From sequence record NC_054931.1: a stretch of DNA of 64,000 bases; one strand, 5' to 3'. Numbering within the stretch: position 1 is the first letter of the stretch; every line of letters starts with the position of its first letter. Positions 16,006 to 61,430 of the stretch are shown here, in pieces. The notes beneath the pieces were generated by a model that worked only from the letters and a program-made list of their open reading frames with translations, was not told the DNA's origin and did no database searches. The position numbers were made by a program, and so were the translations under genes. This DNA is from Escherichia phage T2.

Positions 16006-16551
16006 TTATTGCAGCAAAAATGAATTATACAATTCTTCATCATATGTATTTGATAATAATACTAACACGTTTTGTGATTTAGCATATTCATTAAACCTTG
16101 CTTGGATGGTTGGATTATCAGTAAATGATTCTCTTTTTGTCCATTTATTACGTGGATAATATCCGCATGGCAAAAAATCTAATATCATCAATGACACAGG
16201 GTTTTCAGTTTTTGTGTATTCTTTTAATTTCTCTTTATCTTCTAAATATATTCCAACCGAATCAATAGCTGTACCTCCACCAACTTGGTGTTTAATTTCA
16301 ATTATATGCTTTTTACCGTTGCGAGAAATAACAATATCAAATCTTCTAGTACGCTTTTTAGTTATAAAATTAGAGCAAAACAAATTATTTGATTTTTCAG
16401 TATCATCAATTAAAACCATTTTTTCTTGATAACTAACTGAACAATCAGTGAAATATTCTTTTACTTTATTAAGTATGAAATTTTCAACTACGGCAGATAT
16501 TTTATATGAATCTCCGTTTAAAGCCATTTCATGCACAATTTTATTAATCAT
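16006..16551 (-). CDS. hypothetical protein with PD-(D/E)xK nuclease-like motif, directly upstream of dam
   Basis: 181-aa ORF; RFDIVISRNGKKHIIEIKH (D83...E96-x-K98); SD gaggatga; 13-nt gap to dam. Confidence 0.4.
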   Translation of the reverse strand: MINKIVHEMALNGDSYKISAVVENFILNKVKEYFTDCSVSYQEKMVLIDDTEKSNNLFCSNFITKKRTRRFDIVISRNGKKHIIEIKHQVGGGTAIDSVGIYLEDKEKLKEYTKTENPVSLMILDFLPCGYYPRNKWTKRESFTDNPTIQARFNEYAKSQNVLVLLSNTYDEELYNSFLLQ

Positions 16552-16576: not shown

Positions 16577-16606
16577 ATAATACCACAACAAGCTGAGAAA
16601 GTAAAC
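16577..16606 (-). promoter_or_regulatory. T4-type early promoter for the 16006-16551 / dam / 56 transcription unit
   Basis: gtaaac 16601-16606, 18-bp spacer, -10 TATTAT. Confidence 0.5.
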
Positions 16607-16641
16607 AAATTTATGATAAATATTAATTTAAAGGAGGACAT

Positions 16642-16842
16642 ATGGTACAAAAATTAATGGCACTTGTTAATGCCATCAAAGGTAATAAAAAGCGTATAGC
16701 TTTTACTATTTCTGCTATGGTAGGAATTTTACTCTGGAACTTTATTTTATCACCTGTTGCAATTGCACATGGTATTAATATTCCAATAGTTACTCTTGAT
16801 ACATTCGTAGATTTAGCATTTGCTTTAGTTGGGTTAATTTAA
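16642..16842 (+). CDS. small hydrophobic membrane protein on the plus strand
   Basis: 66-aa ORF in an otherwise ORF-free gap; strong SD aggagg 5 nt before ATG; two predicted hydrophobic segments; convergent with gene 61. Confidence 0.45.
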   Translation: MVQKLMALVNAIKGNKKRIAFTISAMVGILLWNFILSPVAIAHGINIPIVTLDTFVDLAFALVGLI

Positions 16843-17867
16843 ATCTTAGCATATTTAGATAACCGCATTTTAGCCATCAACCCCTGGGCAATATTATTTT
16901 TCATATATTCCATAATTTGTTCATGGGATGCACCTTCCTTTCTAATCATATCATTAACATCTTTTGATTTCCAGGGAGATTTATCCCAAAACATAACCCT
17001 TTCTCCTGCATCAACTAATTTAGTCATTCGTTTGATAGTGTCAGGGTGACGAGGTTCATTATCTAAGACCCACACTCGTCTATCTTTAAATGGAACAATT
17101 TCTAGGTCTAATTGACCACCCGTAATAGCTATACCATTTTCAATAAAAAGTGAATCTATAGGTCCTTCTAGAACATATACATCACCATCTTTAACTCGTT
17201 CGACTCCATAGATTTTTGTTGCCTCAGGATAAGCTTTGATGGTGATATATTTTTGAGGAGCATCTTTCTTTAATGCACGTCCTTGAAAAGACTCAGCTTT
17301 TCCACTAGCATTATAAATTGGAATAACAAGACGAGGCTCAGGTATTTCCTTTTTATATGTTCCCGGTGCTATGCTATTAACCAATTTAGGCCATTCGGTT
17401 GTAAACCAAAGATATTTCCATTTATCCTTTGGAATACAACGAGCTTTTACATATTTTATAATTGGATTGTCTTCCGCCAGTTTATCTAATCTAACGCATG
17501 ACGGAAGAGATTTAATTATTTTCTTTTCAGGTTGTTTAGGAAGTTCTTTAGGTTTTTCTACTGGACGACTTTTACCTTTTTCTTTTCTTATTTCAAAGAT
17601 ATACTCACGATATAAATCAGGTTCAAACTCCTTTAAATATATTCCGATTGGTGCATGATAGTTACAGTTATAACAATGAATGTTTCCTTCATTATTATCA
17701 CCATAATACCATCCACGGGCTTTATTTTGGTCGGTTTTTGAATCTCCACACACTGGGCATCTAAACCGCAATTTAAAAGTTGAACTATTATTTACTTGTG
17801 TGAATTTAGGTAAATGAGCTAATGCACGATACGCAAACTCATTATCAATCCAAGGTATTGATGACAT
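16839..17867 (-). CDS. 61: DNA primase gp61
   Basis: 342-aa ORF; zinc ribbon CPVCGD...CYNC near N-terminus; length equals T4 gp61. Confidence 0.9.
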   Translation of the reverse strand: MSSIPWIDNEFAYRALAHLPKFTQVNNSSTFKLRFRCPVCGDSKTDQNKARGWYYGDNNEGNIHCYNCNYHAPIGIYLKEFEPDLYREYIFEIRKEKGKSRPVEKPKELPKQPEKKIIKSLPSCVRLDKLAEDNPIIKYVKARCIPKDKWKYLWFTTEWPKLVNSIAPGTYKKEIPEPRLVIPIYNASGKAESFQGRALKKDAPQKYITIKAYPEATKIYGVERVKDGDVYVLEGPIDSLFIENGIAITGGQLDLEIVPFKDRRVWVLDNEPRHPDTIKRMTKLVDAGERVMFWDKSPWKSKDVNDMIRKEGASHEQIMEYMKNNIAQGLMAKMRLSKYAKI

Positions 17868-18035
17868 TTTTACTCTTCTTTTTCTTTAGATTCCTCTTTT
17901 TTCTTTTTAGGAATCTGTTCAGGACCTTTATTTACTACAGCGCCTGACGTTGTTCCAGTAGAGATATTTTCAGGATTACCACCTGAATCTCCAGCGACCA
18001 TATCTTCTTTGATAAATTCTTTATATGTTTTCATA

Positions 18036-18392
18036 TTAACCTCTATTCATAAAAGCATTAAAAATTTGGTCATCAATAGATGGTGCAGTAATATTTTCTG
18101 TATCATTTAGCAAATCATTAATTTCATCAGATAGCATAACACATGTACCTTTATTTCCTGTAATTGTTACTGCACAATTACGAACGTTTTCTTTATTAAA
18201 TTTTAGGTTAATATTTTCGTAATGAAAATCCTTTAATGCTGAATATATTTTTAAAATAAAATTATCTTTTACTACAATAAACCCAACCTCACTATTAAAA
18301 CGTGGTTCATGGAAACTGTAATAAACCTTTTCATCTATAAAATCGTATGAAATTTTTTCCATTTTTAAATATGAAAATTCAGAACTATGCAT
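18036..18392 (-). CDS. hypothetical protein
   Basis: 118-aa ORF. Confidence 0.4.
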   Translation of the reverse strand: MHSSEFSYLKMEKISYDFIDEKVYYSFHEPRFNSEVGFIVVKDNFILKIYSALKDFHYENINLKFNKENVRNCAVTITGNKGTCVMLSDEINDLLNDTENITAPSIDDQIFNAFMNRG

Positions 18393-18420
18393 ACTAACCT
18401 CTAATTATTCACCTACCACT

Positions 18421-18699
18421 TCAGCGATGATTATTTTTATTATTAAAGTTTTTATCGCAATACAGAACATAATTATACTGCATTACACCACCAGACTTAA
18501 GCTGTTTTTGCACTTCAGCTTTCATTTCAGGACGATCACGCTCAACGATATTCATAATATCTGCTTCAATTTGGGTTTCAACTTCAGTCTGATCCGCAGT
18601 CATAGACCATTCACACAAATCTTTATCATAGCCTGCCATAGCAGGCTGAGCAGCACAAGAAGCTAAAGCAAAAATTGTAGCAAAGATAAATTTTTTCAT
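18421..18699 (-). CDS. sp: secreted protein, Spackle (Sp)-like by position
   Basis: start at MKKFIFATIFALA with SD gaggag; cleavable signal peptide; position between 61 and dmd. Confidence 0.45.
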   Translation of the reverse strand: MKKFIFATIFALASCAAQPAMAGYDKDLCEWSMTADQTEVETQIEADIMNIVERDRPEMKAEVQKQLKSGGVMQYNYVLYCDKNFNNKNNHR

Positions 18700-18728
18700 G
18701 ATTAATCTCCTCAGTAGTTTATGTTTAT

Positions 18729-18758
18729 ATAGTATCTCAATTTCCAATAAAAGTAAAC
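18729..18758 (-). promoter_or_regulatory. T4-type early promoter
   Basis: gtaaac 18753-18758 with -10 TACTAT-like 18 bp away. Confidence 0.4.
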
Positions 18759-18760
18759 AG

Positions 18761-19018
18761 TTATTTTAAAACTTTTGCGTAATCACATGTTACAAACTGT
18801 TTCTCTAGCTTAACGATCTTACGAAAGTATCTTTTGCATTGGCGAATCTGCCGCTTCGTAGGGCGAACAGCAAACTTAATAAATTCCACTCGACCAAATG
18901 GAGGACTTTCTTCTGCTGGAATATCTAACACCAATTCCCACGTATCTGCAATAAGTGCTTTGAATTGCGTATTTTTCCTGACGTTATACGGAGTAGGTTT
19001 AAATAAAACAATATGCAT
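18761..19018 (-). CDS. hypothetical protein
   Basis: ORF; likely start MHIVLFKP at 19018 with SD gaggat. Confidence 0.4.
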   Translation of the reverse strand: MHIVLFKPTPYNVRKNTQFKALIADTWELVLDIPAEESPPFGRVEFIKFAVRPTKRQIRQCKRYFRKIVKLEKQFVTCDYAKVLK

Positions 19019-19019
19019 A

Positions 19020-19202
19020 TTATCCTCGGCAATCCACTTCACACACTTTCTTATCATCAATGAAAGCTTTAACTAATGCTTTATTAACTTCAGCATATTG
19101 AGTAGTAGCCCATTGAACGTCATCTTTCATCATTGTGGTTTCTTTAGTAAACATGCTTTCATTCTTAAACCACCCCATAAAAACTACCTTTACCAATTCC
19201 AT
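19020..19202 (-). CDS. dmd: Dmd, antitoxin against host RnlA/LsoA RNases
   Basis: 60-aa ORF MELVKVVFMGWFKNESMF... matching recalled T4 Dmd length and sequence. Confidence 0.75.
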   Translation of the reverse strand: MELVKVVFMGWFKNESMFTKETTMMKDDVQWATTQYAEVNKALVKAFIDDKKVCEVDCRG

Positions 19203-19231
19203 AACAATCTCCTCATTTAACCAACAAGACT

Positions 19232-19261
19232 ACTATACCATAATCTTGTCAGCTTGTAAAC
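19232..19261 (-). promoter_or_regulatory. T4-type early promoter upstream of dmd
   Basis: gtaaac 19256-19261, 18-bp spacer, -10 TATAGT. Confidence 0.45.
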
Positions 19262-20688
19262 TAAAATTTTAATTCATTCGCCAAAGCATCTAACTGAGCT
19301 CGAGTGGATTCATTTCTTTGATAGCGATTCTGCTCAGCCTGAATCTGTTGTGAACCTGCTACTTCGTTCACTTCAGTTGGAGTAGAATCTTGTTCAATTT
19401 CTACCCATTTCTGATTTCCTTTTTGAACACCCATCAAAAACTTATTCCATTTGTTTTTATCACCATATCGTGATTTGATTTGCTTAATGAGTTGTTGTTC
19501 AGCAGCTGCTAGCTCCTCGGTTTCAATGACTGCAAGCATAAAATCGGCTGTTGCTGGAAGACCGGCAGATTCTGCAATATCGCTCATGTTAACATCGGAA
19601 GAGTCCCAAGCTTGTTTACCAACCTGTGCTGCAGTCCAAAGAACAGTTTCGGTTTCAACAGCCAGAGCACGCAATTCCTCTGCAATAGCTTTAACAGTTG
19701 TGTAACTATTTTCTGAATAAACTCTAATGCGGCAAGATTTACAAATACCTAGATAGTCGACAATAATGATTGTTGGAACAAAATTCTTTTTGAGCTTCAA
19801 TTCATTTAAAAGCGATCGAAATGTATTAGCATCTGCTCCACCGGTAGGATACTGTTTAACGATTAAACGACCGAGAGTAGATTTCTCACGCCATTTTTCC
19901 ATTTTTCCTTTATACTCAGCGTAAGAAATATGCCCATCATCAATGTCATCAAGAGAAACATCAAGCATATTAGCATCAATACGTTTAGCACAGACTTCTT
20001 CTGCCATTTCCATTGAAATGTAAAGAACATTATGTCCGAGCTGTAAATAATCTGCTGCCAATGAACACAATCCTAATGACTTACCGACGTTAACGCCAGC
20101 CATTAAAACGTTCAGTGTTCCAGTCTCAGCTCCGCCTTTAGTAATTTTGTTTAGAATTCTGAGTTTAAATGGAACCTTACGAGCTTTATTCATATAAGAT
20201 AGCCAACGTGCTTCGTAGTCATCCATCCAATCATGACCAACGTAGCTATCAAATGAAATTGATAATGCTTGGCGCATGATGTCAGGAATAGCACCAACAT
20301 CCGGCATTTTCTTATTTCGTTTTTCCGGAGGAAGCTCAGCATTAGTTTGAATTTCGATTATTTTAGACGTAGCATTAAACATCGCCCTTTGCTGAACATA
20401 TTTTTCTGTTTCTTTTACTAACCAGCTGTGGTCTTCCGGAGAATCAGCTAGTTTTGAAATAAGTGTTTTTACACCAGAATATTCTGTTTCAGTAAATGAA
20501 CTATTTTCTAATGCAACATTTAACGCATTAATAGATGGAACGCTATGGTACTCATTAACATGAGATTTAATTAATTTGAATGTATTTTTAGCTGGACCAC
20601 TTTCAAAATATTCTGAATCCATATATGGCCAAACTTTTGAAAAATAAGCTTGATCAAATATGAGATGAGAAAGAATAATTTCTACCAC
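19261..20688 (-). CDS. 41: replicative DNA helicase gp41 (DnaB-like)
   Basis: 475-aa ORF; Walker A GVNVGKS; length equals T4 gp41. Confidence 0.9.
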   Translation of the reverse strand: MVEIILSHLIFDQAYFSKVWPYMDSEYFESGPAKNTFKLIKSHVNEYHSVPSINALNVALENSSFTETEYSGVKTLISKLADSPEDHSWLVKETEKYVQQRAMFNATSKIIEIQTNAELPPEKRNKKMPDVGAIPDIMRQALSISFDSYVGHDWMDDYEARWLSYMNKARKVPFKLRILNKITKGGAETGTLNVLMAGVNVGKSLGLCSLAADYLQLGHNVLYISMEMAEEVCAKRIDANMLDVSLDDIDDGHISYAEYKGKMEKWREKSTLGRLIVKQYPTGGADANTFRSLLNELKLKKNFVPTIIIVDYLGICKSCRIRVYSENSYTTVKAIAEELRALAVETETVLWTAAQVGKQAWDSSDVNMSDIAESAGLPATADFMLAVIETEELAAAEQQLIKQIKSRYGDKNKWNKFLMGVQKGNQKWVEIEQDSTPTEVNEVAGSQQIQAEQNRYQRNESTRAQLDALANELKF

Positions 20689-20697
20689 ACTTACTCC

Positions 20698-21060
20698 TTA
20701 AAAGAATTTAAATTTTTTCTTTGACCTTTTATTAAATGCATCTTGTAATTGCATTGTAATACATTTTTCTACATGAGGAGCTAACTCAGCTTTTCTTTCT
20801 TGGTCAAGAACAGCAAAGTCCATTACAACCTTTCCATCAACCCAATCCAGTTTTGTTACATACACTATATGTGTAGAACCATCTTCTAGTTTAATGACAA
20901 TCTCCTGGATAACATTTTCCATAGCGGATTTAATTATCTTAAGAGACTCATTAAAAAGACGTTCTTTTCTTTCTTCTTCCCCCTCCGAAGAGGGGGATTC
21001 ATCGATAATTTCTAGATCTAAATCTAAATCATCTTTATTCATTAAATTCTTCCATATCAC
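20698..21060 (-). CDS. 40: gp40-like head-assembly protein (by position)
   Basis: 120-aa ORF between 41 and uvsX. Confidence 0.5.
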   Translation of the reverse strand: MIWKNLMNKDDLDLDLEIIDESPSSEGEEERKERLFNESLKIIKSAMENVIQEIVIKLEDGSTHIVYVTKLDWVDGKVVMDFAVLDQERKAELAPHVEKCITMQLQDAFNKRSKKKFKFF

Positions 21061-22216
21061 TTAACTGTTCGAGGTCAGTTTCTAAATCAGCTGCTGATTT
21101 ACTTTTACTTTCTGGAGATTTAAATTTTTCAACCTTTGAGTTAATCAATTCATCAACTTCAGCTTCAACAATTTCATTACTATCAATAGCACCTAACTGA
21201 TAAGCACGTTTAATAGCATCTCGGAATGGTTGATGCTTAAATAAAGGACCCCAGAATGTAGTGCAGTTAGTATCTTTTGCACGCCAAGATTTTTCTTCGC
21301 GAATCATCTCGCCGGTTTCTTCGTCAAGAAATTCACGAGCATACCAACCATTCTTAGGTTTTACCACGAATCCTAATTCTAGAGCCATATCTAACAATCC
21401 AGAATAAGGATCGATACCACCGTCAAATTTAACATCAATAAAAAATTTACTTTTTTCTTTAACGGTACGAGATTTTTCTACATTTAGAACAAATTGATAC
21501 CCCTGAAGATCAGAACCATCTTTAATCTGACGTTTACCGATAATGAATACAGTATCAGCCGAATACATTACGCCTGTACCACCTGTCATCACGGTTTTAC
21601 TAAACATTTCAATTGTTTCAATTGTATGGTTAACCGCAACACACGGAATATTTTTAATGCTAAAATAAGGAGTAACAATACGGAATAATGACTTCAGTGA
21701 TTTAGCACGAGTCATATCTGCCACAGATTTTTCATTCAAGGCATCTTCCGTTTCTTTCTTAGAAGCCATATTACCGATTGAGTCGATGAATACAATAACC
21801 TTTTCACCACGCTCAATAGCTTCAAGCTGGTTCACCATATCAATTTTCAGCTGTTCAACTGACTGAATTGGCGTATGAATTACTCGTTCCGGGTCAACTC
21901 CCATGGATCGCAAATAAGCTGGAGTAATACCAAATTCGCTATCATAGAATAGACAAACCGCGTCAGGATATTTGTTCAAATATGCCGCAACCATAGTCAA
22001 AGACATATTTGATTTAAAGTGTTTAGAAGGCCCTGCGAAAATAGTTAAACCAGACTGCATACCACCATCAATCGCACCAGAAATAGCAATATTAAGCATT
22101 GGGATTTTTGTACGGATTACATCCTTTTCATTAAAGAATTTAGATGTAGTCAGCTCAGCAGTCATTTTAGAAGTGGAAGCTTTAATCAAACGGGATTTTA
22201 AATCTGCAATAGACAT
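21035..22216 (-). CDS. uvsX: UvsX recombinase (RecA-like)
   Basis: 393-aa ORF; Walker A GPSKHFKS; extensive match to recalled UvsX sequence. Confidence 0.9.
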   Translation of the reverse strand: MSIADLKSRLIKASTSKMTAELTTSKFFNEKDVIRTKIPMLNIAISGAIDGGMQSGLTIFAGPSKHFKSNMSLTMVAAYLNKYPDAVCLFYDSEFGITPAYLRSMGVDPERVIHTPIQSVEQLKIDMVNQLEAIERGEKVIVFIDSIGNMASKKETEDALNEKSVADMTRAKSLKSLFRIVTPYFSIKNIPCVAVNHTIETIEMFSKTVMTGGTGVMYSADTVFIIGKRQIKDGSDLQGYQFVLNVEKSRTVKEKSKFFIDVKFDGGIDPYSGLLDMALELGFVVKPKNGWYAREFLDEETGEMIREEKSWRAKDTNCTTFWGPLFKHQPFRDAIKRAYQLGAIDSNEIVEAEVDELINSKVEKFKSPESKSKSAADLETDLEQLSDMEEFNE

Positions 22217-22293
22217 TCATTTTTTCCATAGGCATCATTATATTTTCCTCACTGGTTAAAGATAGAGTAATTATAACACAATAAATTTAGGCA

Positions 22294-23142
22294 TTAATCA
22301 ACTGCTATTGGATGAATAGCATTAAACTTATGAAATGCTTCTGATTTTTCTTTACGCGAAACACACATGCGAAGAACCTTTAATGACTCGTCTTCTTCAC
22401 CCAACGATTTTCGTTTTTCAATATTAGAAGTTTTCCAACGAGCTTGCTCTGGAAACTCTCTATTGATTTGCTCAAGCGCTCTATTATGTTTAGAATTACT
22501 GCGAATTGAACTGCACCCGCCAGGAGCTTGTGCTTTTCCAGATACAACTAGATATTTGAACAAGGCCAAATGCGGATAACCTTGATTAATTAAATTGAGA
22601 AATGCATACATATCTTCGCATAAATCAATTTTTCCATACCCAATTTGTTCTGTAGTAAGTTTTCCGAGGTCATACCATGTATTCGTGAATCCATATGAAT
22701 TTTCACGATAATTACCCCAAGATGAAGTAATTTTAAAAATAGGTAGACGAGCATGGCCATGATAATACCCACAATCCATGGCATCCTCAACATATTGAAT
22801 CAATTCATAGAACTGTTCACGAGTCAATTGATTGACTTTATCTACGCAACGACGATCATCTCTTTTTCGCATTGAACTCATACGAATAGTAGTATCATCG
22901 TCAATCATCCAGATTCGTTGACCTGCATACATATCAGTAATTGCTTTACGAGTACCGGCAATTCCGTTTACATCATCAGGAATAGTTATAATTTTAGCTC
23001 TAGACCCATAGGCGTCATAATAAGCTTTTTCTTCATGTTCACGTACTACGATATGAGGTTCATAATCAGTCGGAAACATATCAAGGGCAGAAACTGCCCC
23101 TACATGTTGATAGCTCGGAATTACGAATTGAATCATTTCCAC
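22294..23142 (-). CDS. GT-A-fold glycosyltransferase at the beta-glucosyltransferase locus
   Basis: 282-aa ORF; VIPSY N-terminus and DxD motif RIWMIDDDTTI; not the 351-aa T4 beta-gt. Confidence 0.5.
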   Translation of the reverse strand: MEMIQFVIPSYQHVGAVSALDMFPTDYEPHIVVREHEEKAYYDAYGSRAKIITIPDDVNGIAGTRKAITDMYAGQRIWMIDDDTTIRMSSMRKRDDRRCVDKVNQLTREQFYELIQYVEDAMDCGYYHGHARLPIFKITSSWGNYRENSYGFTNTWYDLGKLTTEQIGYGKIDLCEDMYAFLNLINQGYPHLALFKYLVVSGKAQAPGGCSSIRSNSKHNRALEQINREFPEQARWKTSNIEKRKSLGEEDESLKVLRMCVSRKEKSEAFHKFNAIHPIAVD

Positions 23143-23873
23143 TCACCGTTATAATCTTTTTTCACAATATGAGTTTCGCCAGTATTCCACCAATGATCAA
23201 CCAAGTAAAAATGACGAGAATATACATGAAGACTTCCAACATTCCATATAATAGAACCTGCTTTATACTGACGAGTTGAATCGCCTGCATTCAAATCAGA
23301 TACTAATTTATCTAGTACGTATTTTTGCCATGCATAATCATTACGGAATCCGAAGACCACGTCATTTGAGCGCATGCTTACTACTGCATTGACTTTCTTA
23401 TCACGAATCAGGTATTGTACTGTATTCGTGCACATGAAATCTGACATGCCGTCTTTGTTGTAGTCAAACTGCATAGATGGACGAGTATAAATCATGATAC
23501 CACGTCGAGAATCAGGATTTTGACCAAGTTCAGCTAAACACATGTCATATTGAGCATAGTTATCTTCTGACCAGATAGCCCAACCATAATTCGAGTTAAT
23601 TTCACCTTTAGAAGATGCTACTTGTTGCCAAATCTTCGGTGTTTCACCCGGAATATCTTTAACGAACAAGCTCTTAGATTTATACCATTCAAGTTCACGC
23701 TGAATGTATTCATCATTAAGAGCGCCAAAAATAAACGGTTCATCTGCTACAAATGATGCGCCAATAATTTCAATAGTTTTAACACCAGTTTTATCAACTA
23801 CGAAATCTTTTTCTTTTAATGCAAGCCCCAAATGAAGACGGATTTCTTCAACTGTCATAGAGTCACTAATCAT
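23133..23873 (-). CDS. 42: dCMP hydroxymethylase gp42
   Basis: 246-aa ORF; thymidylate-synthase-like fold signatures; length equals T4 gp42. Confidence 0.9.
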   Translation of the reverse strand: MISDSMTVEEIRLHLGLALKEKDFVVDKTGVKTIEIIGASFVADEPFIFGALNDEYIQRELEWYKSKSLFVKDIPGETPKIWQQVASSKGEINSNYGWAIWSEDNYAQYDMCLAELGQNPDSRRGIMIYTRPSMQFDYNKDGMSDFMCTNTVQYLIRDKKVNAVVSMRSNDVVFGFRNDYAWQKYVLDKLVSDLNAGDSTRQYKAGSIIWNVGSLHVYSRHFYLVDHWWNTGETHIVKKDYNGEWK

Positions 23874-23880
23874 TTAAACC

Positions 23881-24030
23881 TCAATTGATGCATTCATATT
23901 TAAATTGTAACAGTAATAAACCCCACCCTATGATAAGAGTTGGAATCATAGCAGGAACTGTTACGCTATAGTATATACTTATTATAACCATCAAGATTAA
24001 AAGCAACACTGCTATAATTTTGCTTTTCAT
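23881..24030 (-). CDS. small hydrophobic peptide translationally coupled to imm (49 aa, below cutoff)
   Basis: manual translation MKSKIIAVLLLILMVIISIYY...; ATGA overlap with imm stop. Confidence 0.3.
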   Translation of the reverse strand: MKSKIIAVLLLILMVIISIYYSVTVPAMIPTLIIGWGLLLLQFKYECIN

Positions 24031-24278
24031 TCTTTCTCTCTGATGATAATTACCTGATTTGGCTGCGCAGACTTTTTAGTTTCACCAGCAATTGACCAAA
24101 TAAATGTAATAAACCAACCAATAATTGACCAGTTAAACAGTAAAGATGTGAAAAAGATTCCTACTGTCGATTTTGACCCACGCATCAAGGCGATAAACCA
24201 TGGAAGCATGTATATAATAATAGCCAACACACCTGAAACTAAAACCATAAAAATTGAACCTGCTACTAAAGTTTCCAT
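24027..24278 (-). CDS. imm: Imm superinfection immunity membrane protein
   Basis: 83-aa ORF with two hydrophobic helices; length and position match T4 Imm. Confidence 0.8.
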   Translation of the reverse strand: METLVAGSIFMVLVSGVLAIIIYMLPWFIALMRGSKSTVGIFFTSLLFNWSIIGWFITFIWSIAGETKKSAQPNQVIIIREKE

Positions 24279-24285
24279 GTTTTCC

Positions 24286-24666
24286 TCACTTAGTCAAATT
24301 TTTTACACATGAATTATAAGAATTCACTACATACTCCATCGGAGCATTTTTACCGGTACGCCACTGGTAATTATTAGCCCAATTTGCCCAAAGCACGGCG
24401 CAGTAGTTTTCAATTTTTTCTTCGCGCGTAATTACATCCGAATTACGATATGCTTGAGCAGATTCATCTGGACGAATAGCCTCGTCAAAATTCGCCTGCA
24501 TTTGTTCTACTGTCTGTTTTGGAGCTTCTTTATAACACTTGACATTAGGATTATAAAATTTGCTTGAACAGTTTACAATTTTTCCTACATCAGACTGATT
24601 TACTACCTGTCCTTGAGCTACACAACCAGTAAGACCTAATGCAATAACCAAAATAGCGATTTTCAT
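24286..24666 (-). CDS. secreted protein (signal peptide)
   Basis: 126-aa ORF MKIAILVIALGLTGCVAQG, lipobox-like. Confidence 0.4.
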   Translation of the reverse strand: MKIAILVIALGLTGCVAQGQVVNQSDVGKIVNCSSKFYNPNVKCYKEAPKQTVEQMQANFDEAIRPDESAQAYRNSDVITREEKIENYCAVLWANWANNYQWRTGKNAPMEYVVNSYNSCVKNLTK

Positions 24667-24678
24667 AATAATTTCCTC

Positions 24679-24930
24679 TTAAAACTTAACAAATAACTTT
24701 AAAGCATCTTCAGTTTTAATTCCTTTTCTTACACCCATAACAGAAATTGGCTGTGACTGAAATTTTCCTTTACCATTATAAATTTCTAATCCAGTCACCA
24801 TTCCATTTTGTTCTATAATACCGTAAGTGTTACCTTCATTTTCAAATTCTTTAACTTTAAAAAGTTTATTCGCTTTTTCTGCGTTAACAACTTTTAAATT
24901 TTGAATAAAATTAGTTTGAATATTTTTCAT
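24679..24930 (-). CDS. hypothetical protein
   Basis: 83-aa ORF with strong SD ggaggaa. Confidence 0.4.
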   Translation of the reverse strand: MKNIQTNFIQNLKVVNAEKANKLFKVKEFENEGNTYGIIEQNGMVTGLEIYNGKGKFQSQPISVMGVRKGIKTEDALKLFVKF

Positions 24931-24958
24931 TTTGTGTTCCTCCGTAGTTGATAGTTGT

Positions 24959-24988
24959 ATAGTACCACAGAGGAACAGTCTTGTAAAC
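24959..24988 (-). promoter_or_regulatory. T4-type early promoter inside a repeated promoter/leader cassette
   Basis: gtaaac 24983-24988; about 45 bp shared with copy at 50262-50305. Confidence 0.55.
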
Positions 24989-25076
24989 AGTTTTGTGAAA
25001 AAATTTTTAATGAATTCAAAGGGTCCAGAATCATCTGTTTTTCATAAGTATAGATTTATATTACTTGTATGAAAAG

Positions 25077-25092
25077 GGGACCCGGAGGTCCC
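25077..25092 (-). terminator. GC hairpin after gene 43
   Basis: gggacc-cgga-ggtccc perfect inverted repeat flanked by A/T runs. Confidence 0.45.
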
Positions 25093-25105
25093 TAGATTTA
25101 TTCTA

Positions 25106-27802
25106 TCAGCCAAACAGGAAGTCTAACGAAGCTTTTTCCTCATAGTCCATACCTGCCGATTCACACATACCCGCAAGCGGTTTAACAAACGATTTTTGGA
25201 ACAAAGTTGAGTAGTCAATCCAAGATAGTACATCAGAACGAATTTCTTTTGGAAGTTCTGTACCCGATGGCCAAGCAATGCACTTATCACCAAACGGATT
25301 TCCTTCACGTAATGGAAGAACCATTACTTTATTTCCATCCAAAATTGGAGCTACACCCAGACCACTAACAGCTCGACGATAAGTTAGCACACCACGAATA
25401 TGGAACGGACATTTAAATCCTGGCCAACCTTTATCATCATATTTCGCTATATCGTTCGCAGTTTTTACTTCAGCAATAACTTTATAGTCAAGTTGACGAT
25501 ATTCTTTCTCGAAGTTCTTGTAATATTCTTGGACAGACTCTTCGCCTTCCTGAAGAATACGACGAATACTTTCTTCGAGTGCTTCTTGCACTGCTTTTGG
25601 TGTTGAACTCTGCTGAGTTTCCATACCCATGATTTTTAGATGCGGTTCAGCAAATCGCTTATCTTCCATATCATAAACGTTCAGAGCATAACGTTTTTTC
25701 GCTTTCCAAAATCCACCAACACCCTTTGAACCAAGCGGAGGGCAAGAAATAGCTTCACGGTCCATATGCATCAGATGCTCGCGGTTATTCATATAATCAC
25801 ATAACTCACGATATGCAACATCAATCATAGGTTCCATCTTTTTCTTACCAAACTGATTCATGAATTCAACCAAATCGTTCTGCTCTTTGAATCGGTCAAG
25901 ACCAACTTTTTCAATAACTTTATCTACACAAACATATACCGAATCAGTATCACCTGCTGCGATGAAATCTTCATCATTAGTTCCGCATACTTTATTCAGA
26001 TATTCATTAATTTTACGAGCAATCCACTGAATACCAACTTGACCAAAAATTGTGATAGCAGTAGCATTTCGTAAATCATAGTAACGGAAATGAATATTAC
26101 CAAGAGCACCATAAAGACTGTTAATAAGAATTTTACGGTTCAGCTGATTTGTATTAGCAAGTGTAGCTGCTTTTTCACATTCTTCAATCAGACTATTAAG
26201 AACAGATTCAGTATAATTCGATAGTTCATTTAAGAAATCATCAGTGAACTTAACATATCGTTCAACTTCTGGTTTAGTTGAACAAGACCCTGCGCCTTTC
26301 ATAATAATCTTTTTAATAGCTTCGGCATTCATTTCTTCAGCGAACATTTTCTTTTTCCAATCTTTACGCTGGAAAAATACTTTAGCGATTTCCTTTGGAA
26401 TGATACCTTCTTGATGCTTATCATACATCCATCCATTCGGAGAACAAGAATATTCATCACTTGGTTTAGGAGCTGTTCCTGCGATATATTCATGAATTGG
26501 ATGAACTTTAAACTGACCACGAATAGTTTCAGGACTAATGTTAACCTGGCGAATAATGCTCGGATACAGAGACGTCAAGTCAAAACTCATAATGTATCGA
26601 CGAGCAATTGGTTTAGGTTCAAATACAAATGCACCCGGAAAACTCTGTTTAACGTGCGAACCTTGTTGAGGAATAACCTTGTGTTCACCTTTCAATGAGT
26701 TAAAAATAATAGCATCCCAAGTTTTAATAGGACTCATTACACCAGAAAAAGGCATTTTAGCATAATAAGACATACTTAAAACTAGATCGATAAACCCACG
26801 AATTTTATCAATTGCTTGAACTGATTCTACGTCAATGATGTTATAACTAATGTATCGTTGATGATTAGTCTCACGAAGTTTATTAATAGGACCGTCGTAT
26901 GGTAATTTACCTTTTTTGGTTTCATGTTGAGCAACTGATTCCAAAGAGAATGACGGCAAATTAGTAAAAGCGAATTTCTTGTACAAATCTAAATAATCAA
27001 GAATAGATACGCCATCAATAGAATAAATTTCTTTGCTACCGTACATATTTTGAATTAGTTTAGATTTTACCCGACCGATTGGAGAGAAACGTTTCATACT
27101 GCGTTCACCCAGAATCATTTTAACGCGATTCATGATATACGGAACGTCAAACCCCTCAATATTCCAACCAGTAAAAATAGCAGGTCGTTTCTGTTCCCAG
27201 AGATTAATATATTCCATGAGCATATCACGCTCATTATCAAATGGCATATAAATTACTCGGTCAAGAATTTCTTGAGGAACTTCATCACCACCTTCACAGT
27301 CAAGCTTAGCAGCTAACTTTGCATCCCATTTTGATACTGAACCGTACATTGAATTCAAAAGGTCGAAAACATAAAAACGGTCGTCAATTGAATCATAATG
27401 AGTGATAGCATCAATTTCATATTCTGCTTTCATTGGGTCAGGAAATTTATCACCAGTAACCTCAATGTCACAGTTAGCTACACGAACAAATTTTCGGTCA
27501 TAAACAATTTCTGAACCATACGTATCACTGATATAAGCGAGTTTAAAATCGTTCATACCGAGAGCTTCGAGACCGATGTCTTCCATTCGCTTCATCCAAT
27601 CTCGAGCATCTTTCATTGATGGAAATTTTTGAGGAGCACAGTTTTTACCATAGATGTCTTTGTATTTTGACTCTTCCTTACAATGCCTAAACATAGTCGG
27701 AAGATATTCTACTTCACGAGTACGTTCCTTTCCGTTTTCATCAATATAACGTTCAATAATATTATTTCCGACTGTTTCGATAGAGATATAAAATTCTTTC
27801 AT
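25106..27802 (-). CDS. 43: DNA polymerase gp43 (family B, with 3'-5' exonuclease)
   Basis: 898-aa ORF; polymerase motifs including YGDTDS-type region (AGDTDSVY); length equals T4 gp43. Confidence 0.95.
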   Translation of the reverse strand: MKEFYISIETVGNNIIERYIDENGKERTREVEYLPTMFRHCKEESKYKDIYGKNCAPQKFPSMKDARDWMKRMEDIGLEALGMNDFKLAYISDTYGSEIVYDRKFVRVANCDIEVTGDKFPDPMKAEYEIDAITHYDSIDDRFYVFDLLNSMYGSVSKWDAKLAAKLDCEGGDEVPQEILDRVIYMPFDNERDMLMEYINLWEQKRPAIFTGWNIEGFDVPYIMNRVKMILGERSMKRFSPIGRVKSKLIQNMYGSKEIYSIDGVSILDYLDLYKKFAFTNLPSFSLESVAQHETKKGKLPYDGPINKLRETNHQRYISYNIIDVESVQAIDKIRGFIDLVLSMSYYAKMPFSGVMSPIKTWDAIIFNSLKGEHKVIPQQGSHVKQSFPGAFVFEPKPIARRYIMSFDLTSLYPSIIRQVNISPETIRGQFKVHPIHEYIAGTAPKPSDEYSCSPNGWMYDKHQEGIIPKEIAKVFFQRKDWKKKMFAEEMNAEAIKKIIMKGAGSCSTKPEVERYVKFTDDFLNELSNYTESVLNSLIEECEKAATLANTNQLNRKILINSLYGALGNIHFRYYDLRNATAITIFGQVGIQWIARKINEYLNKVCGTNDEDFIAAGDTDSVYVCVDKVIEKVGLDRFKEQNDLVEFMNQFGKKKMEPMIDVAYRELCDYMNNREHLMHMDREAISCPPLGSKGVGGFWKAKKRYALNVYDMEDKRFAEPHLKIMGMETQQSSTPKAVQEALEESIRRILQEGEESVQEYYKNFEKEYRQLDYKVIAEVKTANDIAKYDDKGWPGFKCPFHIRGVLTYRRAVSGLGVAPILDGNKVMVLPLREGNPFGDKCIAWPSGTELPKEIRSDVLSWIDYSTLFQKSFVKPLAGMCESAGMDYEEKASLDFLFG

Positions 27803-27845
27803 AGATATTCCTTAGTTTATAGCCCGAGTTATTAGGCTCTTGATA
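27803..27845 (-). promoter_or_regulatory. gene 43 translational operator (hairpin plus SD)
   Basis: minus-strand sequence GAGCCUAAUAACUCGGGCU...AAGGAAUAUCU-AUG upstream of gp43 start. Confidence 0.55.
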
Positions 27846-27860
27846 TATTATACTCCAAAT

Positions 27861-27878
27861 AAGGGGCCGAAGCCCCTT
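27861..27878 (-). terminator. C(UUCG)G hairpin between regA and gene 43
   Basis: aaggggc-cgaa-gcccctt inverted repeat. Confidence 0.45.
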
Positions 27879-27880
27879 GC

Positions 27881-28249
27881 TTAATTACCAATCGTATATT
27901 TAGGAACGAGTTTCCATTCATGTTTTTGTTTAAAAGAAATAACTCGGAAGTTATTAGTTAAATCTTTCATAAAAGTTCTTTGACCAGGAACGATTTCAAT
28001 TAGTCCCCAATCTTCTAATAGCCATGCAATCGAATCACGACGAACTTCATCTTCTTCTGTCATTTCAACTTGGCGACCATCCATACGAAGCATTTCTTTA
28101 AAATGAACGATATAGTATAGTCCTTTTTTCTGAAGAATATGACAGGACTGATACAGAACTTTATCTTTATTATTAGCAATTCCCATACGAGTCAAAGTTT
28201 CTTTTACTTTCAGAAAATCTTCAGGTTTTTTAAGAGTAATTTCAATCAT
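27881..28249 (-). CDS. regA: RegA translational repressor
   Basis: 122-aa ORF; length and position match T4 RegA. Confidence 0.85.
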   Translation of the reverse strand: MIEITLKKPEDFLKVKETLTRMGIANNKDKVLYQSCHILQKKGLYYIVHFKEMLRMDGRQVEMTEEDEVRRDSIAWLLEDWGLIEIVPGQRTFMKDLTNNFRVISFKQKHEWKLVPKYTIGN

Positions 28250-28250
28250 T

Positions 28251-28814
28251 TTACCATTCCAATGCTAGTTTTTTGAGTTGTTTCTGTTCTTTTACGTTCT
28301 TAGTCACTTCTTTCAAAAAATCATCCGTGACTAAACCTTTTAGTTCTTTTAATACTAAAGGAAGTTTTCCGTTTTTAGTAAGAATTGATTTATAGTTAAT
28401 TGCATCATTTGTATTAACTTGATACCGTTTAGCAAGTAACTTAATAATCAATACTTCGGTGGAATCTTCAACCAGTTTTGCCCATTTACCATATCTTTTA
28501 CCACGAGGAACTGCAGCCATCAGATAATTAAAATGGGCTTCATCACTTAAGCCTGATCCAATTAAATTCATAGCATATACAGCTGGCATGCACTCTGGAA
28601 ATTGTGATAATGCATTTTCGACCATGAATTTTGAATAATCTTTTTGAGCAATAGAGCATTTAGTTTTATTATTAATAGCTCCAATTATTTCAAAAAATTC
28701 ATTTTCGGCTTTTTCTTTAAAAGAATCAGCAGCGGATTGGACAGCTGTCCAATCTTTTGAATACCAAGCAACTTGATGCTCGTTTAATTGAATATCATCT
28801 TCAAATAAGCTCAT
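28251..28814 (-). CDS. 62: clamp loader small subunit gp62
   Basis: 187-aa ORF, position between regA and 44. Confidence 0.85.
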
Positions 28815-28815
28815 A

Positions 28816-29775
28816 TCACTTCCACTGCATTTCGCATGCTAATTGAATGAAAAGATAAGCTAAATGTAATTCAGTGTTAGCTGCAATACCATGATACTGA
28901 TTATTTTCACCAACAATTTCGTACATACGAATAATGCTCTGTGGAGTTACACGTGAATAGATTTCTTCGGCAAGTTTACCCACGAACCACGAATAATCAG
29001 CCGCGTATTTTGGTGCTAAAGCTCTGAGTTGTTTAACATCTTTATTTTTGAGAGACTCAAGAACATCATCAATAGCACCACGATCGTTAGTAACCAGTGA
29101 TAAAATACCAGCATCCAAAACACCTTTAGATGAATAACTATCGAGCTCGCCAATAGTTTTACGAAAATCAGGAAAATTCTTTTTAACCAAAGCTGCTACA
29201 ACTTTCATATCAGCTATAGCAATTCCTTCGTGCTTGCAGATTTCAGTCAATCGACGAATCATCTGCTTCATCATTTCAATTTTATCTTCATCAGTTGGTT
29301 GACCGAATGTAATAACTCGGCAGCGTGACTGAAGCGGTTTAATAATACCATCAATATTGTTAGCAGTAATAATAATACTACAGTTTGAACTATAAGCTTC
29401 CATAAAGGAACGAAGATGTCGCTGAGACTCTGCTAACCCTGAGCGGTCAAATTCATCAATAACGATTACTTTTTGACGACCATCAAATGAAGCGGCGCTG
29501 GCAAAATTAGTCAAAGGACCACGAACGAAATCAATTTTACAATCTGATCCATTCACAAACATCATATCAGCATTTACATCATGACACAATGCTTTTGCTA
29601 CAGTTGTTTTACCTGTTCCTGGAGAAGGAGAATGAAGAATAATATGTGGAATCTTACCTTTACTTGTAATAGATTTAAAGGTTTCTTTATCAAAGGCGGG
29701 AAGAATACATTCATCGATAGTAGATGGACGATATTTCTGTTCAAGAATGTGTTCTTTTTCATTTACGGTAATCAT
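28816..29775 (-). CDS. 44: clamp loader ATPase gp44 (AAA+)
   Basis: Walker [10 protein letters not shown], Walker B VIVIDEFD; start at MITVNEKEH gives 319 aa. Confidence 0.9.
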
Positions 29776-29809
29776 AATTTCCTCATTCAAATTTTAGTGT
29801 AAATTATAA

Positions 29810-29823
29810 AGGGCCGAAGCCCT
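29810..29823 (-). terminator. C(UUCG)G hairpin between genes 45 and 44
   Basis: agggc-cgaa-gccct inverted repeat. Confidence 0.4.
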
Positions 29824-29826
29824 CTA

Positions 29827-30513
29827 TTAAAAATCGTGGGTAGAATCAGCTTCAAGAGCTACTACATAATTCGCGTGTTCACCTTCAAATTTAGCAGCAC
29901 CTTGTTTACCTTTTGCCCAGAGCAGAAGTTTATAATTTCCTGGTTGCATTTTCATATTTGCCATATTGATAATGAAATTAAATGTATTTTCACCATCATA
30001 ATCACCAAGAGTCAAAGAATATTTAACACGGGTCAGAGCAGAATCTTCTACTTTATTAAAACCGTTAATTACGATTTTACCTTCTTTTACCGTGATAGCA
30101 ATTGTATCAATTTGCAGACCACGAGATACACGCAACAGTTGTTGAAGGTCTTCAGCTTTAATTTCAGTAACAACAGATGCTACCGGGAATGGAATTGGTT
30201 TATTAGGAGCAACTACTGTACTCGGATCGGCTGCTGGCCAAAAAATTGTTGAACGAGCATCAGCAATTTTAATATTTCCATCTTCTGACTGGGAAATTTC
30301 TGCATCATCATTAACTAGAGACAGAATACCGAGAAAACCGTTCAAATCGTAAATCGCTACATCAAAATCAATAACGTCAGAAATATTTGCTTCCGCATAA
30401 GTTGTACCATTAACTGCGCGAGTCATAATAAATTGACCGGATTTAAGCATAATACCAGAGTTAATAGTAGCGAAATTTTTAAGCAGAGCAGTAGTATCTT
30501 TAGACAGTTTCAT
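29827..30513 (-). CDS. 45: sliding clamp gp45
   Basis: 228-aa ORF; length and position match T4 gp45. Confidence 0.9.
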   Translation of the reverse strand: MKLSKDTTALLKNFATINSGIMLKSGQFIMTRAVNGTTYAEANISDVIDFDVAIYDLNGFLGILSLVNDDAEISQSEDGNIKIADARSTIFWPAADPSTVVAPNKPIPFPVASVVTEIKAEDLQQLLRVSRGLQIDTIAITVKEGKIVINGFNKVEDSALTRVKYSLTLGDYDGENTFNFIINMANMKMQPGNYKLLLWAKGKQGAAKFEGEHANYVVALEADSTHDF

Positions 30514-30568
30514 GTAATTTCCTTCAATTCAAATGAGATTTAATTTTATAACTAATTTAATAAAGCAA

Positions 30569-30958
30569 TTAACGATTAAAATCAGCCGCAATTGTTTCCG
30601 CAACAATTTGAGCAGCAACAATTAGACGTTCATCTGCATTACCGCAATAATCATCTTCAAGGCGTTCACCACATGAAGTCATAATAAATTTAGCACCGGC
30701 GTTTAGGGATTCTGTAGTATGTTTGCGCATTAGTTCAATCCATTTATTACTTACTTCACGATCGATAGCTTCATAATACGCATGACGAGCAGGTGCAGAT
30801 TTAATTTTGTTCTGAATAACTTCCATTGCGTTATCAGAAAGAGACAAAACCCATGCTCGACGAATTTTATTTTGGTTTTGTGGATTTGATTCAGAACGCA
30901 CGTGTTTTGGCTGAATATCTTTTACATCAACAGTATAATTCACAGTAATTTTAGTCAT
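30569..30958 (-). CDS. rpbA: RNA polymerase binding protein RpbA
   Basis: 129-aa ORF in rpbA position. Confidence 0.65.
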
Positions 30959-30967
30959 AATACACCT

Positions 30968-31156
30968 TTAGTCATAATAATCAGTAACAGTCCAAGCTTC
31001 ATTTCTATTGGACATTATTTTTGTATATTCTGCTTTAAATGCATTCCTAAGCATAGATTCAGTAACTATATGCTCTTCATTAGAAAAATTATTTCTCAGA
31101 ATATATCGTTTTATTTCAGGAATAGTTAATAGATGCTGTCCAGTTGAATATTCCAT
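30968..31156 (-). CDS. hypothetical protein
   Basis: 62-aa ORF. Confidence 0.35.
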   Translation of the reverse strand: MEYSTGQHLLTIPEIKRYILRNNFSNEEHIVTESMLRNAFKAEYTKIMSNRNEAWTVTDYYD

Positions 31157-54852: not shown

Positions 54853-55294
54853 CTTCTTGCGTCAAACGATACATGTTATTTACTTTTTCGATCGCTAATT
54901 CACCAAAAAGCACACTATCTTCTAATACTAATCGTTTCATATTGATTCTCTTCGACTCACTCATAATTACATACTCCTCTGAATCATATCAATAATGTTA
55001 TTCACCAAATTATAAGTAAACATTGGGTAATTATATTGAATCATCACATACACAACAAACAAAACTTTCATTCTCTTCTCCTTGGCAGTTGACAAGATTA
55101 CTATACCATAACCTTGCCAACTTGTAAACCATTAAATGACGTTTTCGATAAAATTCTGAAGCTTTGTATGAGCATCAACCATGATTTTCATTTCTTCTTT
55201 GGCGAAAGCTATACCTCTTTCACGAGAAGAACATTCATAGTCAGAAACTGCATTAGCATATTCTTCAATTAGCTTCATTAAAAACATCTGTTTT

Positions 55295-61068: not shown

Positions 61069-61430
61069 TACAAACTCTCGGTAAAGGTACGAGCGATAAC
61101 GTCGCGCTGCTGTTCCGGAGTCAGAGAGTTAAAGCGAACTGCATAACCGGATACACGGATGGTCAGCTGCGGATATTTTTCCGGATGCTTAACTGCATCT
61201 TCCAGAGTTTCACGACGCAGAACGTTAACGTTCAGGTGTTGACCACCTTCAATTTTAACTGTAGGTTGTGGCTCAATTTCAATTTCACGGGCATGCAAAC
61301 CATAGAAAATTTCTGGGTCTACAAAAGAGTCCTCTTTAAAGGTTTTAGAGACAATAATTCGTGCTTGAATACCATCTTCAAAATAAATAGTACCTTTATG
61401 TGTGCCTTCAAGAATTTGATATGCTTTCAT
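61068..61430 (-). CDS. autonomous glycyl-radical cofactor (GrcA/YfiD-like)
   Basis: 120-aa ORF; C-terminus [59 protein letters not shown] equals PFL/GrcA glycyl-radical domain. Confidence 0.85.

Follow-up and report, generated by a model that had tools for sequence, protein, structure and literature searches.

A 66-codon open reading frame (ORF) on the plus strand of Escherichia phage T2 (NC_054931.1), within the 64,000-nucleotide stretch analyzed here (the window), is almost certainly a real, conserved gene, as judged by comparison of related phage genomes. Taken as a whole, we lean toward reading it as an accessory gene of T-even-type phages that would be expressed late and whose bitopic membrane product would tune the cell envelope. 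Its position is fixed: the ORF is convergent with gene 61 and usually overlaps the 3' end of that gene. The core features of the locus are as follows.

16632 to 16637, plus strand: Shine-Dalgarno sequence AGGAGG, read from the sequence, 4 nt (ACAT) ahead of the ATG
16642 to 16842, plus strand: 66-aa ORF with ATG start and TAA stop, "hypothetical protein" in the T2 record MH751506, matching the family phrog_2024
16839 to 17867, minus strand: gene 61, DNA primase (342 aa), convergent with the ORF, with a stop-stop overlap of 4 nt

An earlier note, made from the sequence alone, had described this ORF as a small membrane gene convergent with the primase gene, and its coordinates, ATG start, and convergence (stops sharing 4 nt) agree with the sequence. 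The predicted product is hydrophobic, as that note had claimed (GRAVY 1.25). The consensus-like Shine-Dalgarno sequence is likewise present, but its spacing is 4 nt rather than the 5 nt given there. A 1.1-kb stretch around the ORF showed 100% identity to several T2 records. Gene order in T2 is mrh, soc, 56, dam, T2_31, the 66-aa ORF, 61, 61.1, 61.2, sp, 61.4, dmd, 41, and every gene in that stretch except the ORF lies on the minus strand. Plus-strand ORFs of at least 40 aa were surveyed across the whole window against minus-strand ORFs of at least 50 aa, the latter covering 93% of its length. The 66-aa ORF lies approximately 98% outside these minus-strand ORFs and is the sole plus-strand ORF of at least 50 aa so placed; its supposed uniqueness holds at this length, but two shorter plus-strand ORFs (40 aa at 54873 and 46 aa at 24932), both without a Shine-Dalgarno sequence, also occupy gaps. 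The term "non-coding gap" was apt with regard to minus-strand ORFs, but it overlooked a minus-strand terminator-like hairpin at 16679 to 16654.

Residues 2 to 66 of the product matched positions 1 to 65 of the 65-position profile of phrog_2024 (E = 6.3e-31), a PHROGs family without assigned function, and MH751506 annotates the hypothetical protein as similar to RB69ORF029w and RB32ORF030w. A tblastn search returned 695 phage records, including approximately 470 Tequatrovirus-type copies with 90 to 100% identity and approximately 190 with less than 60% identity; among the tblastn matches listed, the primase gene adjoins the ORF nearly always. At this same position, the family is present in some 700 or more genomes of T4-like phages, which represent at least five named genera of Tevenvirinae. 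Distant forms occupy this locus in T4-like phages of Klebsiella, Citrobacter, Salmonella, and Enterobacter and in metagenomic T4-like contigs, and are convergent with gene 61 in Karamvirus, Jiaodavirus, Kanagawavirus, and Gaprivervirus phages. Profile searches extended the family to forms with just 23 to 35% identity, and the distant relatives P0083, P0086, and P0068 also matched phrog_2024. Among 1.84 billion representative proteins searched with a profile, 14 matched, all of 45 to 70 aa and none informative on function, and a scan of IMG/VR added further T4-like loci and nothing else.

Comparison across this family shows purifying selection on the ORF at the protein level, with dN/dS between genera of 0.12 to 0.42 at saturated synonymous sites (dS). 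The frame is open at 57 to 70 codons in all lineages examined, down to 23% identity, and a GGAG(G)-type Shine-Dalgarno sequence is present in all relatives examined. Ten residues (M1, G14, W32, N33, F34, P38, G44, P48, A61, and L65) are invariant in an alignment of 21 sequences, and all lineages have D or E, an acidic residue, at position 53. By our estimate from base composition, a random 66-codon frame would be open with a probability of approximately 0.008 in such AT-rich DNA, so chance is excluded over so many lineages. The frame, Shine-Dalgarno sequence, and promoter motif (see below) are kept across genera, and the frame is open and conserved in ten diverged lineages, bearing out the proposal of a genuine opposite-strand gene and clearly contradicting the absence of frame conservation that the note had named as refuting it. 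Gaprivervirus genomes carry tandem paralogs, at 1495 to 1692 and 1701 to 1901 of the TH44 locus (L006) and at 1495 to 1692 and about 1701 to 1895 of the VR20 locus (L004). Copy A resembles the T2 form, whereas copy B shares 59% identity with the Kanagawavirus form but only 23 to 26% with copy A, and it overlaps the gene 61 stop by 4 nt. In VR20, ATG TGA and a frameshift make copy B a pseudogene, and the RefSeq record has no annotation in that interval.

The timing of expression was approached through the sequence upstream of the ORF.

16615 to 16622, plus strand: candidate late promoter GATAAATA, identical to the T4 late promoter TATAAATA at 7 of 8 positions

The T2 motif ends 19 nt ahead of the ATG and differs from TATAAATA at position -13 alone. 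An ATAAATA core is found 12 to 22 nt upstream of the ATG in nine of ten lineages, within flanks that are otherwise unalignable: T2 and T4 carry GATAAATA, F2 and Mosigvirus-type copies AATAAATA, VR20 CATAAATA, and Q7622 TATAAATA, and the core is also present in L017, L020, KP1, and KLB31. CkP1 is the sole deviating lineage (ATTAAATA). Among Tequatrovirus variants, the sequence 5' of the motif changes completely, and motif, Shine-Dalgarno sequence, and ORF stay together. The core is depleted approximately fivefold in the T2 window (8 occurrences on both strands vs 42.8 +/- 5.8 in shuffled sequences), and TATAAATA is depleted approximately threefold (4 vs 11.5 expected). Six of the eight ATAAATA sites (14248, 16616, 43162, 56885, 61383, 63509, 63522, and 63917) lie directly upstream of an ORF with Shine-Dalgarno sequence and ATG, including soc, gene 49, and e, and these six include the two known promoters of e (PMC3014915). 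At 61383 and 63917, both on the plus strand, no ORF follows the site, and antisense late transcripts might start there.

In T4, the 8-bp box constitutes the whole late promoter, position -13 is the most frequent deviation, and early and middle transcripts are all of the opposite polarity, late transcripts being of either (PMC2988020). A gp55-type late promoter is the best reading of the motif given its conservation in nine of ten lineages, its depletion, the placement of six of eight sites before ORFs with Shine-Dalgarno sequence and ATG, and the known variability of position -13. Late expression of the ORF from this predicted promoter is accordingly probable. Scanning for sigma-70-type promoters on the plus strand upstream of the ORF gave no convincing candidate, the one match (9/12) being at shuffle expectation. 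The earlier note had placed the ORF among early-region functions, which is unlikely because the late-promoter core is conserved and T4 early and middle transcription uses the other strand (PMC2988020). Our literature search found no T4 Ribo-seq or transcription-start-site study covering the locus, and the sources searched contained no transcript, protein, or phenotype record for the ORF.

The minus strand of the same gap carries two further elements.

16645 to 16679, minus strand: terminator-like hairpin of 11 bp (16679 to 16654) followed by a TTTTTGT run, found by scan; the hairpin lies within codons 5 to 13 of the ORF
16577 to 16605, minus strand: sigma-70-like promoter TTTACT-17-TG-TATTAT for T2_31 and dam, a 9/12 match that is at chance level when taken alone

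In minus-strand RNA, the hairpin has a predicted stability of -12.7 kcal/mol (z = -3.0). No fold was found at this site in plus-strand RNA (z = +0.3), and structure in the plus-strand mRNA was rejected on this value; the hairpin would form in minus-strand RNA only, because it relies on G-U pairs. By its sequence, it looks like a terminator of gene 61 transcripts, and depositors of the Yersinia phage fPS-65 record annotated a terminator at the equivalent position. The hairpin is invariant among Tequatrovirus variants. No equivalent was found in F2 or VR20, and the hairpin was rejected as a family-wide feature. The sigma-70-like site stands back to back with the late-promoter motif and, in a by-eye comparison of record and alignment, roughly matches the "predicted early promoter" of fPS-65. 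The stops of the ORF and gene 61 overlap in eight of the 11 arrangements checked, by 4 nt in T2, T4, F2, CkP1, KLB31, L020, and TH44 copy B and by 24 nt in Q7622; a 4-nt overlap is also found in L028. Transcripts of the two genes must overlap, since the stops do so in most lineages, and no plus-strand terminator-like site was detected downstream of the ORF before 20775. A late antisense effect on gene 61 is thus conceivable, although such an effect cannot explain the protein-level constraint on the ORF.

The predicted product is divided as follows.

16642 to 16695, plus strand: codons 1 to 18, amphipathic helix (2 to 12) then basic patch KGNKKR, predicted cytoplasmic
16696 to 16767, plus strand: codons 19 to 42, single predicted transmembrane (TM) helix, in which W32-N33-F34 and P38, all invariant, lie toward the outer end
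16768 to 16839, plus strand: codons 43 to 66, C-terminal tail, predicted periplasmic or interfacial, with invariant G44 and P48 and an acidic residue 53

An AlphaFold2 model built with the family alignment (pLDDT 78.7) has helices at residues 2 to 12 and 16 to 42, a loop at 43 to 51, and a short helix at 52 to 63, and the hydrophobic stretch 19 to 42 has a mean Kyte-Doolittle value of 2.0. Lys/Arg residues number three to six in the N-terminal segment vs none or one in the C-terminal tail in each of ten lineages, a bias that argues for an N-in/C-out orientation. Together with the model, this suggests a single-pass, N-in/C-out inner-membrane protein, which we regard as likely. Two probable TM segments had been claimed in the earlier note; this is doubtful in view of the one long helix (16 to 42) and of the tails of relatives, which are too polar to span the membrane. 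Tails are about 22 to 29 aa long across the family (24 in T2), many contain LPPIPLEK, and their mean Kyte-Doolittle values range from 0.24 to 1.96 among lineages. A second TM span is not characteristic of the family, because tails with values down to 0.24 are too polar for one. The T2 tail, at 1.56, might sit in or on the membrane; it comprises 24 residues with a net charge of -2, lacks Lys/Arg, and terminates in AFALVGLI. For T2 and T4, with this fairly hydrophobic tail, a helical-hairpin topology stays in consideration. A cleavable Sec signal peptide was considered and rejected: A-I-A precedes H43 in T2, relatives have T or F at -1 (AAT, ALT, AAF), and cleavage is unlikely because the A-x-A site is not conserved; the hydrophobic region of approximately 21 to 24 residues itself carries the invariant WNF. 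Conserved residues are concentrated in two places, the outer end of the TM helix and the tail (W32, N33, F34, P38, G44, P48, and D/E53), a pattern that suggests contact with another envelope component.

We propose that GATAAATA acts as a gp55-type late promoter, from which an mRNA would start approximately 13 nt before the ATG and be translated into the 66-aa product by virtue of the strong Shine-Dalgarno sequence; both steps are strongly supported. Earlier in infection, the same DNA would be read in reverse, as the 3' untranslated tail and terminator of the gene 61 mRNA. The product is predicted to be a bitopic inner-membrane protein that keeps its basic N terminus and amphipathic helix in the cytoplasm and, beyond a TM helix at approximately residues 19 to 42, exposes a tail of approximately 24 residues at the periplasmic face. 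Because the conserved residues cluster at the outer TM end and in the tail, these could conceivably dock onto a membrane partner. The protein might then have an accessory part in adjusting the envelope at late times of infection, perhaps most plausibly in lysis timing or lysis inhibition with holin T, RI, and RIII, and would probably not form holes itself.

Searches for function retrieved no characterized homolog. The product had no match in Pfam, NCBIfam, or PADLOC, including their known toxin families; a PDB profile search returned noise only (E >= 0.5), and Foldseek comparison of the model with viral structures retrieved family members only. No paper on the ORF, RB69ORF029w / RB32ORF030w, or phrog_2024 was found in the literature search. 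Two names attached to single homologous records, "Holin" (UniProt/BFVD) and "Head morphogenesis protein," have no visible support. The phrog_2024 match (RB69ORF029w / RB32ORF030w) is full length, without any difference that would separate the T2 protein from this family. Among characterized proteins, the small T-even protein RI of T4 combines a membrane/SAR segment at its N terminus with a periplasmic domain through which it binds holin T. The ORF product resembles this antiholin as a small T-even envelope protein, predicted to be N-in/C-out with functional residues facing the periplasm, but no sequence similarity was found, and its periplasmic part is approximately 24 residues rather than a folded domain. 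Small size and envelope location are also features of T4 Imm and Sp, which come from the same phage group; the sp gene is found on the opposite strand at a distance of 1.6 kb. Both belong to the early genes and are encoded on the early strand, whereas the 66-aa ORF follows a late-promoter motif on the late strand and its product has no sequence similarity to either. With small holins and pinholins (class II, approximately 70 aa), the family has in common its size, membrane location, predicted late expression, and rare relatives in lysis or tail regions, but it has one TM helix, no charged C-terminal tail of the holin type, and no holin profile match, and the T2 ORF lies between T2_31/dam and gene 61 rather than beside an endolysin gene.

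Three more distant members of the family outside the usual T4-like setting, P0087 (L021), P0088 (L027), and an unannotated 57-aa ORF in the siphophage-like part of PQ671644, matched phrog_2024 with E = 6e-11 to 4e-4. They sit in a late region after a tail-fiber or tail-tip gene, near two conserved soluble genes in an order that varies among loci and near a TM-plus-coiled-coil protein with weak resemblance to Rz-type spanins (E = 1e-3).

L021, 4980 to 6213: small membrane gene and soluble genes
L027, 4001 to 5082: small membrane gene and soluble genes
L029, 6798 to 7844: small membrane gene and soluble genes
L029, 6798 to 6971: unannotated 57-aa phrog_2024-like ORF of phage DCP80

One soluble neighbor is basic, of approximately 180 to 196 aa, and matches phrog_1924 "minor tail protein" (E = 7e-8); the other is approximately 100 to 106 aa. 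The small membrane gene and the two soluble genes may constitute a functional module. An endolysin gene is located within approximately 1.3 to 1.5 kb of the family member in two of the three cases, and in temperate-phage relatives, the member is found at the end of the tail operon, near an attachment site or integrase. This context lends weak backing to a late role related to the envelope or lysis. Escherichia phage DCP80 (PQ671644.1, with L029 corresponding to 16614 to 31141) is a 141-kb record classified as Gaprivervirus, with a siphophage-like late region (J-like tail tip, endonuclease VII, endolysin, small terminase). It looks like a chimeric assembly, because this region is joined to T4-like early genes (motA).

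Several explanations other than a late envelope-tuning gene were weighed. If there were no gene at all, the gap would consist of the gene 61 3' untranslated region, a terminator, and a promoter spacer with a fortuitously open frame. The terminator-like hairpin and the minus-strand promoter-like site do share the gap, and the curated T4 record has no annotation there, but this reading is close to refuted by a frame that stays open at 57 to 70 codons throughout the lineages examined, even at 23% identity, by dN/dS well below 1, by conservation of Shine-Dalgarno sequence, ATG, and promoter motif alike, and by the low chance (approximately 0.008, our own estimate) of a random open frame of 66 codons. 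Alternatively, what is mainly conserved could be late antisense transcription into gene 61 that shuts off or processes primase mRNA, the peptide being secondary. The overlap of stops in eight of 11 arrangements leaves no room for a terminator, none resembling one appears on the plus strand before 20775, and promoter and ORF travel with gene 61 while upstream neighbors change. Nevertheless, protein-level purifying selection, residues invariant across paralogs of 23 to 55% identity, the conserved strong Shine-Dalgarno sequence, and family members without an adjoining primase gene make this improbable as the main function, and antisense transcription could coexist with a role of the protein. The two ideas can be joined, in that a late gene missed in T4 would encode an envelope-control component (e.g., a partner of T, RI, or RIII) and its late antisense transcript would help to shut off primase; we consider this combination unlikely. 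A type I toxin–antitoxin system, with a small hydrophobic toxin held in check by the antisense 3' untranslated region of gene 61, would account for the character of the peptide and for hairpin-ended gene 61 transcripts complementary to nearly the whole coding region, the sole antisense candidate. However, a strong Shine-Dalgarno sequence and a dedicated (predicted) late promoter in an obligately lytic phage, a conserved motif predicted to face the periplasm, a hairpin/antisense arrangement that is not conserved outside Tequatrovirus (not found in F2 or VR20), and the lack of a match to known toxin families make it very improbable.

A holin or pinholin would accumulate late in the inner membrane and form lesions that release or activate endolysin. 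The small membrane protein with at least one TM domain, its predicted late promoter, and the homolog named "Holin" in UniProt/BFVD fit this, and in DCP80, the family member is the sole small TM ORF seen on the late strand between the weakly spanin-like gene and a T4-lysozyme-type endolysin. Yet the C terminus combines hydrophobic with acidic character and contains no Lys/Arg residue in T2 and at most one in relatives, where holins are typically charged and hydrophilic; e is not adjacent in T2, its promoters lying at 63.5 kb; neither Pfam nor NCBIfam gave a holin-family match; and T-even phages lyse through holin T. We consider this alternative unlikely. The earlier suggestion of a "holin-like" protein retains weak support from context, namely the rare distant relatives near endolysin genes in siphophage-like late regions, but the protein lacks two defining features of holins, a charged C terminus and adjacency to an endolysin gene. 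Superinfection exclusion or envelope protection, as by Imm or Spackle, would block DNA entry or lysis from without or shield progeny from debris. It is in keeping with a small N-in/C-out inner-membrane protein whose conserved residues face the periplasm, with an accessory region that also holds sp, and with the temperate-phage relatives at the tail-operon end near an attachment site or integrase, a common site of exclusion genes. It is also rather unlikely, since exclusion needs early expression and the sole conserved promoter motif is a late one, T4 transcribes the other strand at early and middle times, the plus-strand sigma-70-like match is at chance level, and no similarity to Imm, Sp, or PADLOC models was found. 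Nothing tested supports the toxin or exclusion factor named in the earlier note, and a canonical holin is not supported either. For the late, bitopic protein that we favor, an accessory role in lysis or the envelope is our best guess, albeit a tentative one held at well below even confidence. The idea of a lysis accessory stems from the association seen in a few distant relatives and is weak; the two soluble genes separate the family member from the endolysin gene there, the T2 ORF is approximately 46 kb from the lysozyme gene e, and T-even phages already have a full lysis set, each of which we counted against it.

The ORF is intact in T4, at 17738 to 17938 on the plus strand of NC_000866.4 / AF158101.6 (L002 3739 to 3939), preceded by GATAAATA and AGGAGG, and the T4 product differs from that of T2 by three conservative changes (A25T, I45V, I48V). 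Neither AF158101.6 nor NC_000866.4 annotates it, the 309-bp interval between dam and 61 being blank in both, and in the protein collection searched, the exact T4 protein was represented solely by entries from Logan raw-read assemblies, without an NCBI accession. T4 and T2 are among the most studied genomes, yet the ORF is absent from the curated T4 records, and T4 transcriptomic, proteomic, and knock-down studies based on these annotations would not score it because of that absence. Mass spectrometry is also poorly suited to the product, since apart from LMALVNAIK a tryptic digest would give one hydrophobic peptide of 48 residues. Its entry in the T4 annotation would be a small, concrete correction. 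The product, though uncharacterized, belongs to a familiar general type, that of small membrane proteins, and does not amount to a new kind of system; as a conserved, predicted late inner-membrane protein, it is a reasonable candidate in studies of lysis timing, lysis inhibition, and host range.

On the other side of the gap, T2_31 (16006 to 16551, minus strand, 181 aa) lies directly upstream of dam, which encodes the GATC methylase. Its single-sequence AlphaFold2 model (pLDDT 40) was unusable. T2_31 has a weak match to type II restriction endonucleases (PADLOC REase_II, E = 1e-4), Pfam matches that are all below curated cut-offs (DpnII 0.0096, BanI 0.01, HSDR_N 0.019), and a PD-(D/E)XK-like motif, FD..(12)..EIK. 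A remnant of T2_31 comprising its last 20 codons only is present in T4 (L002 3640 to 3702).
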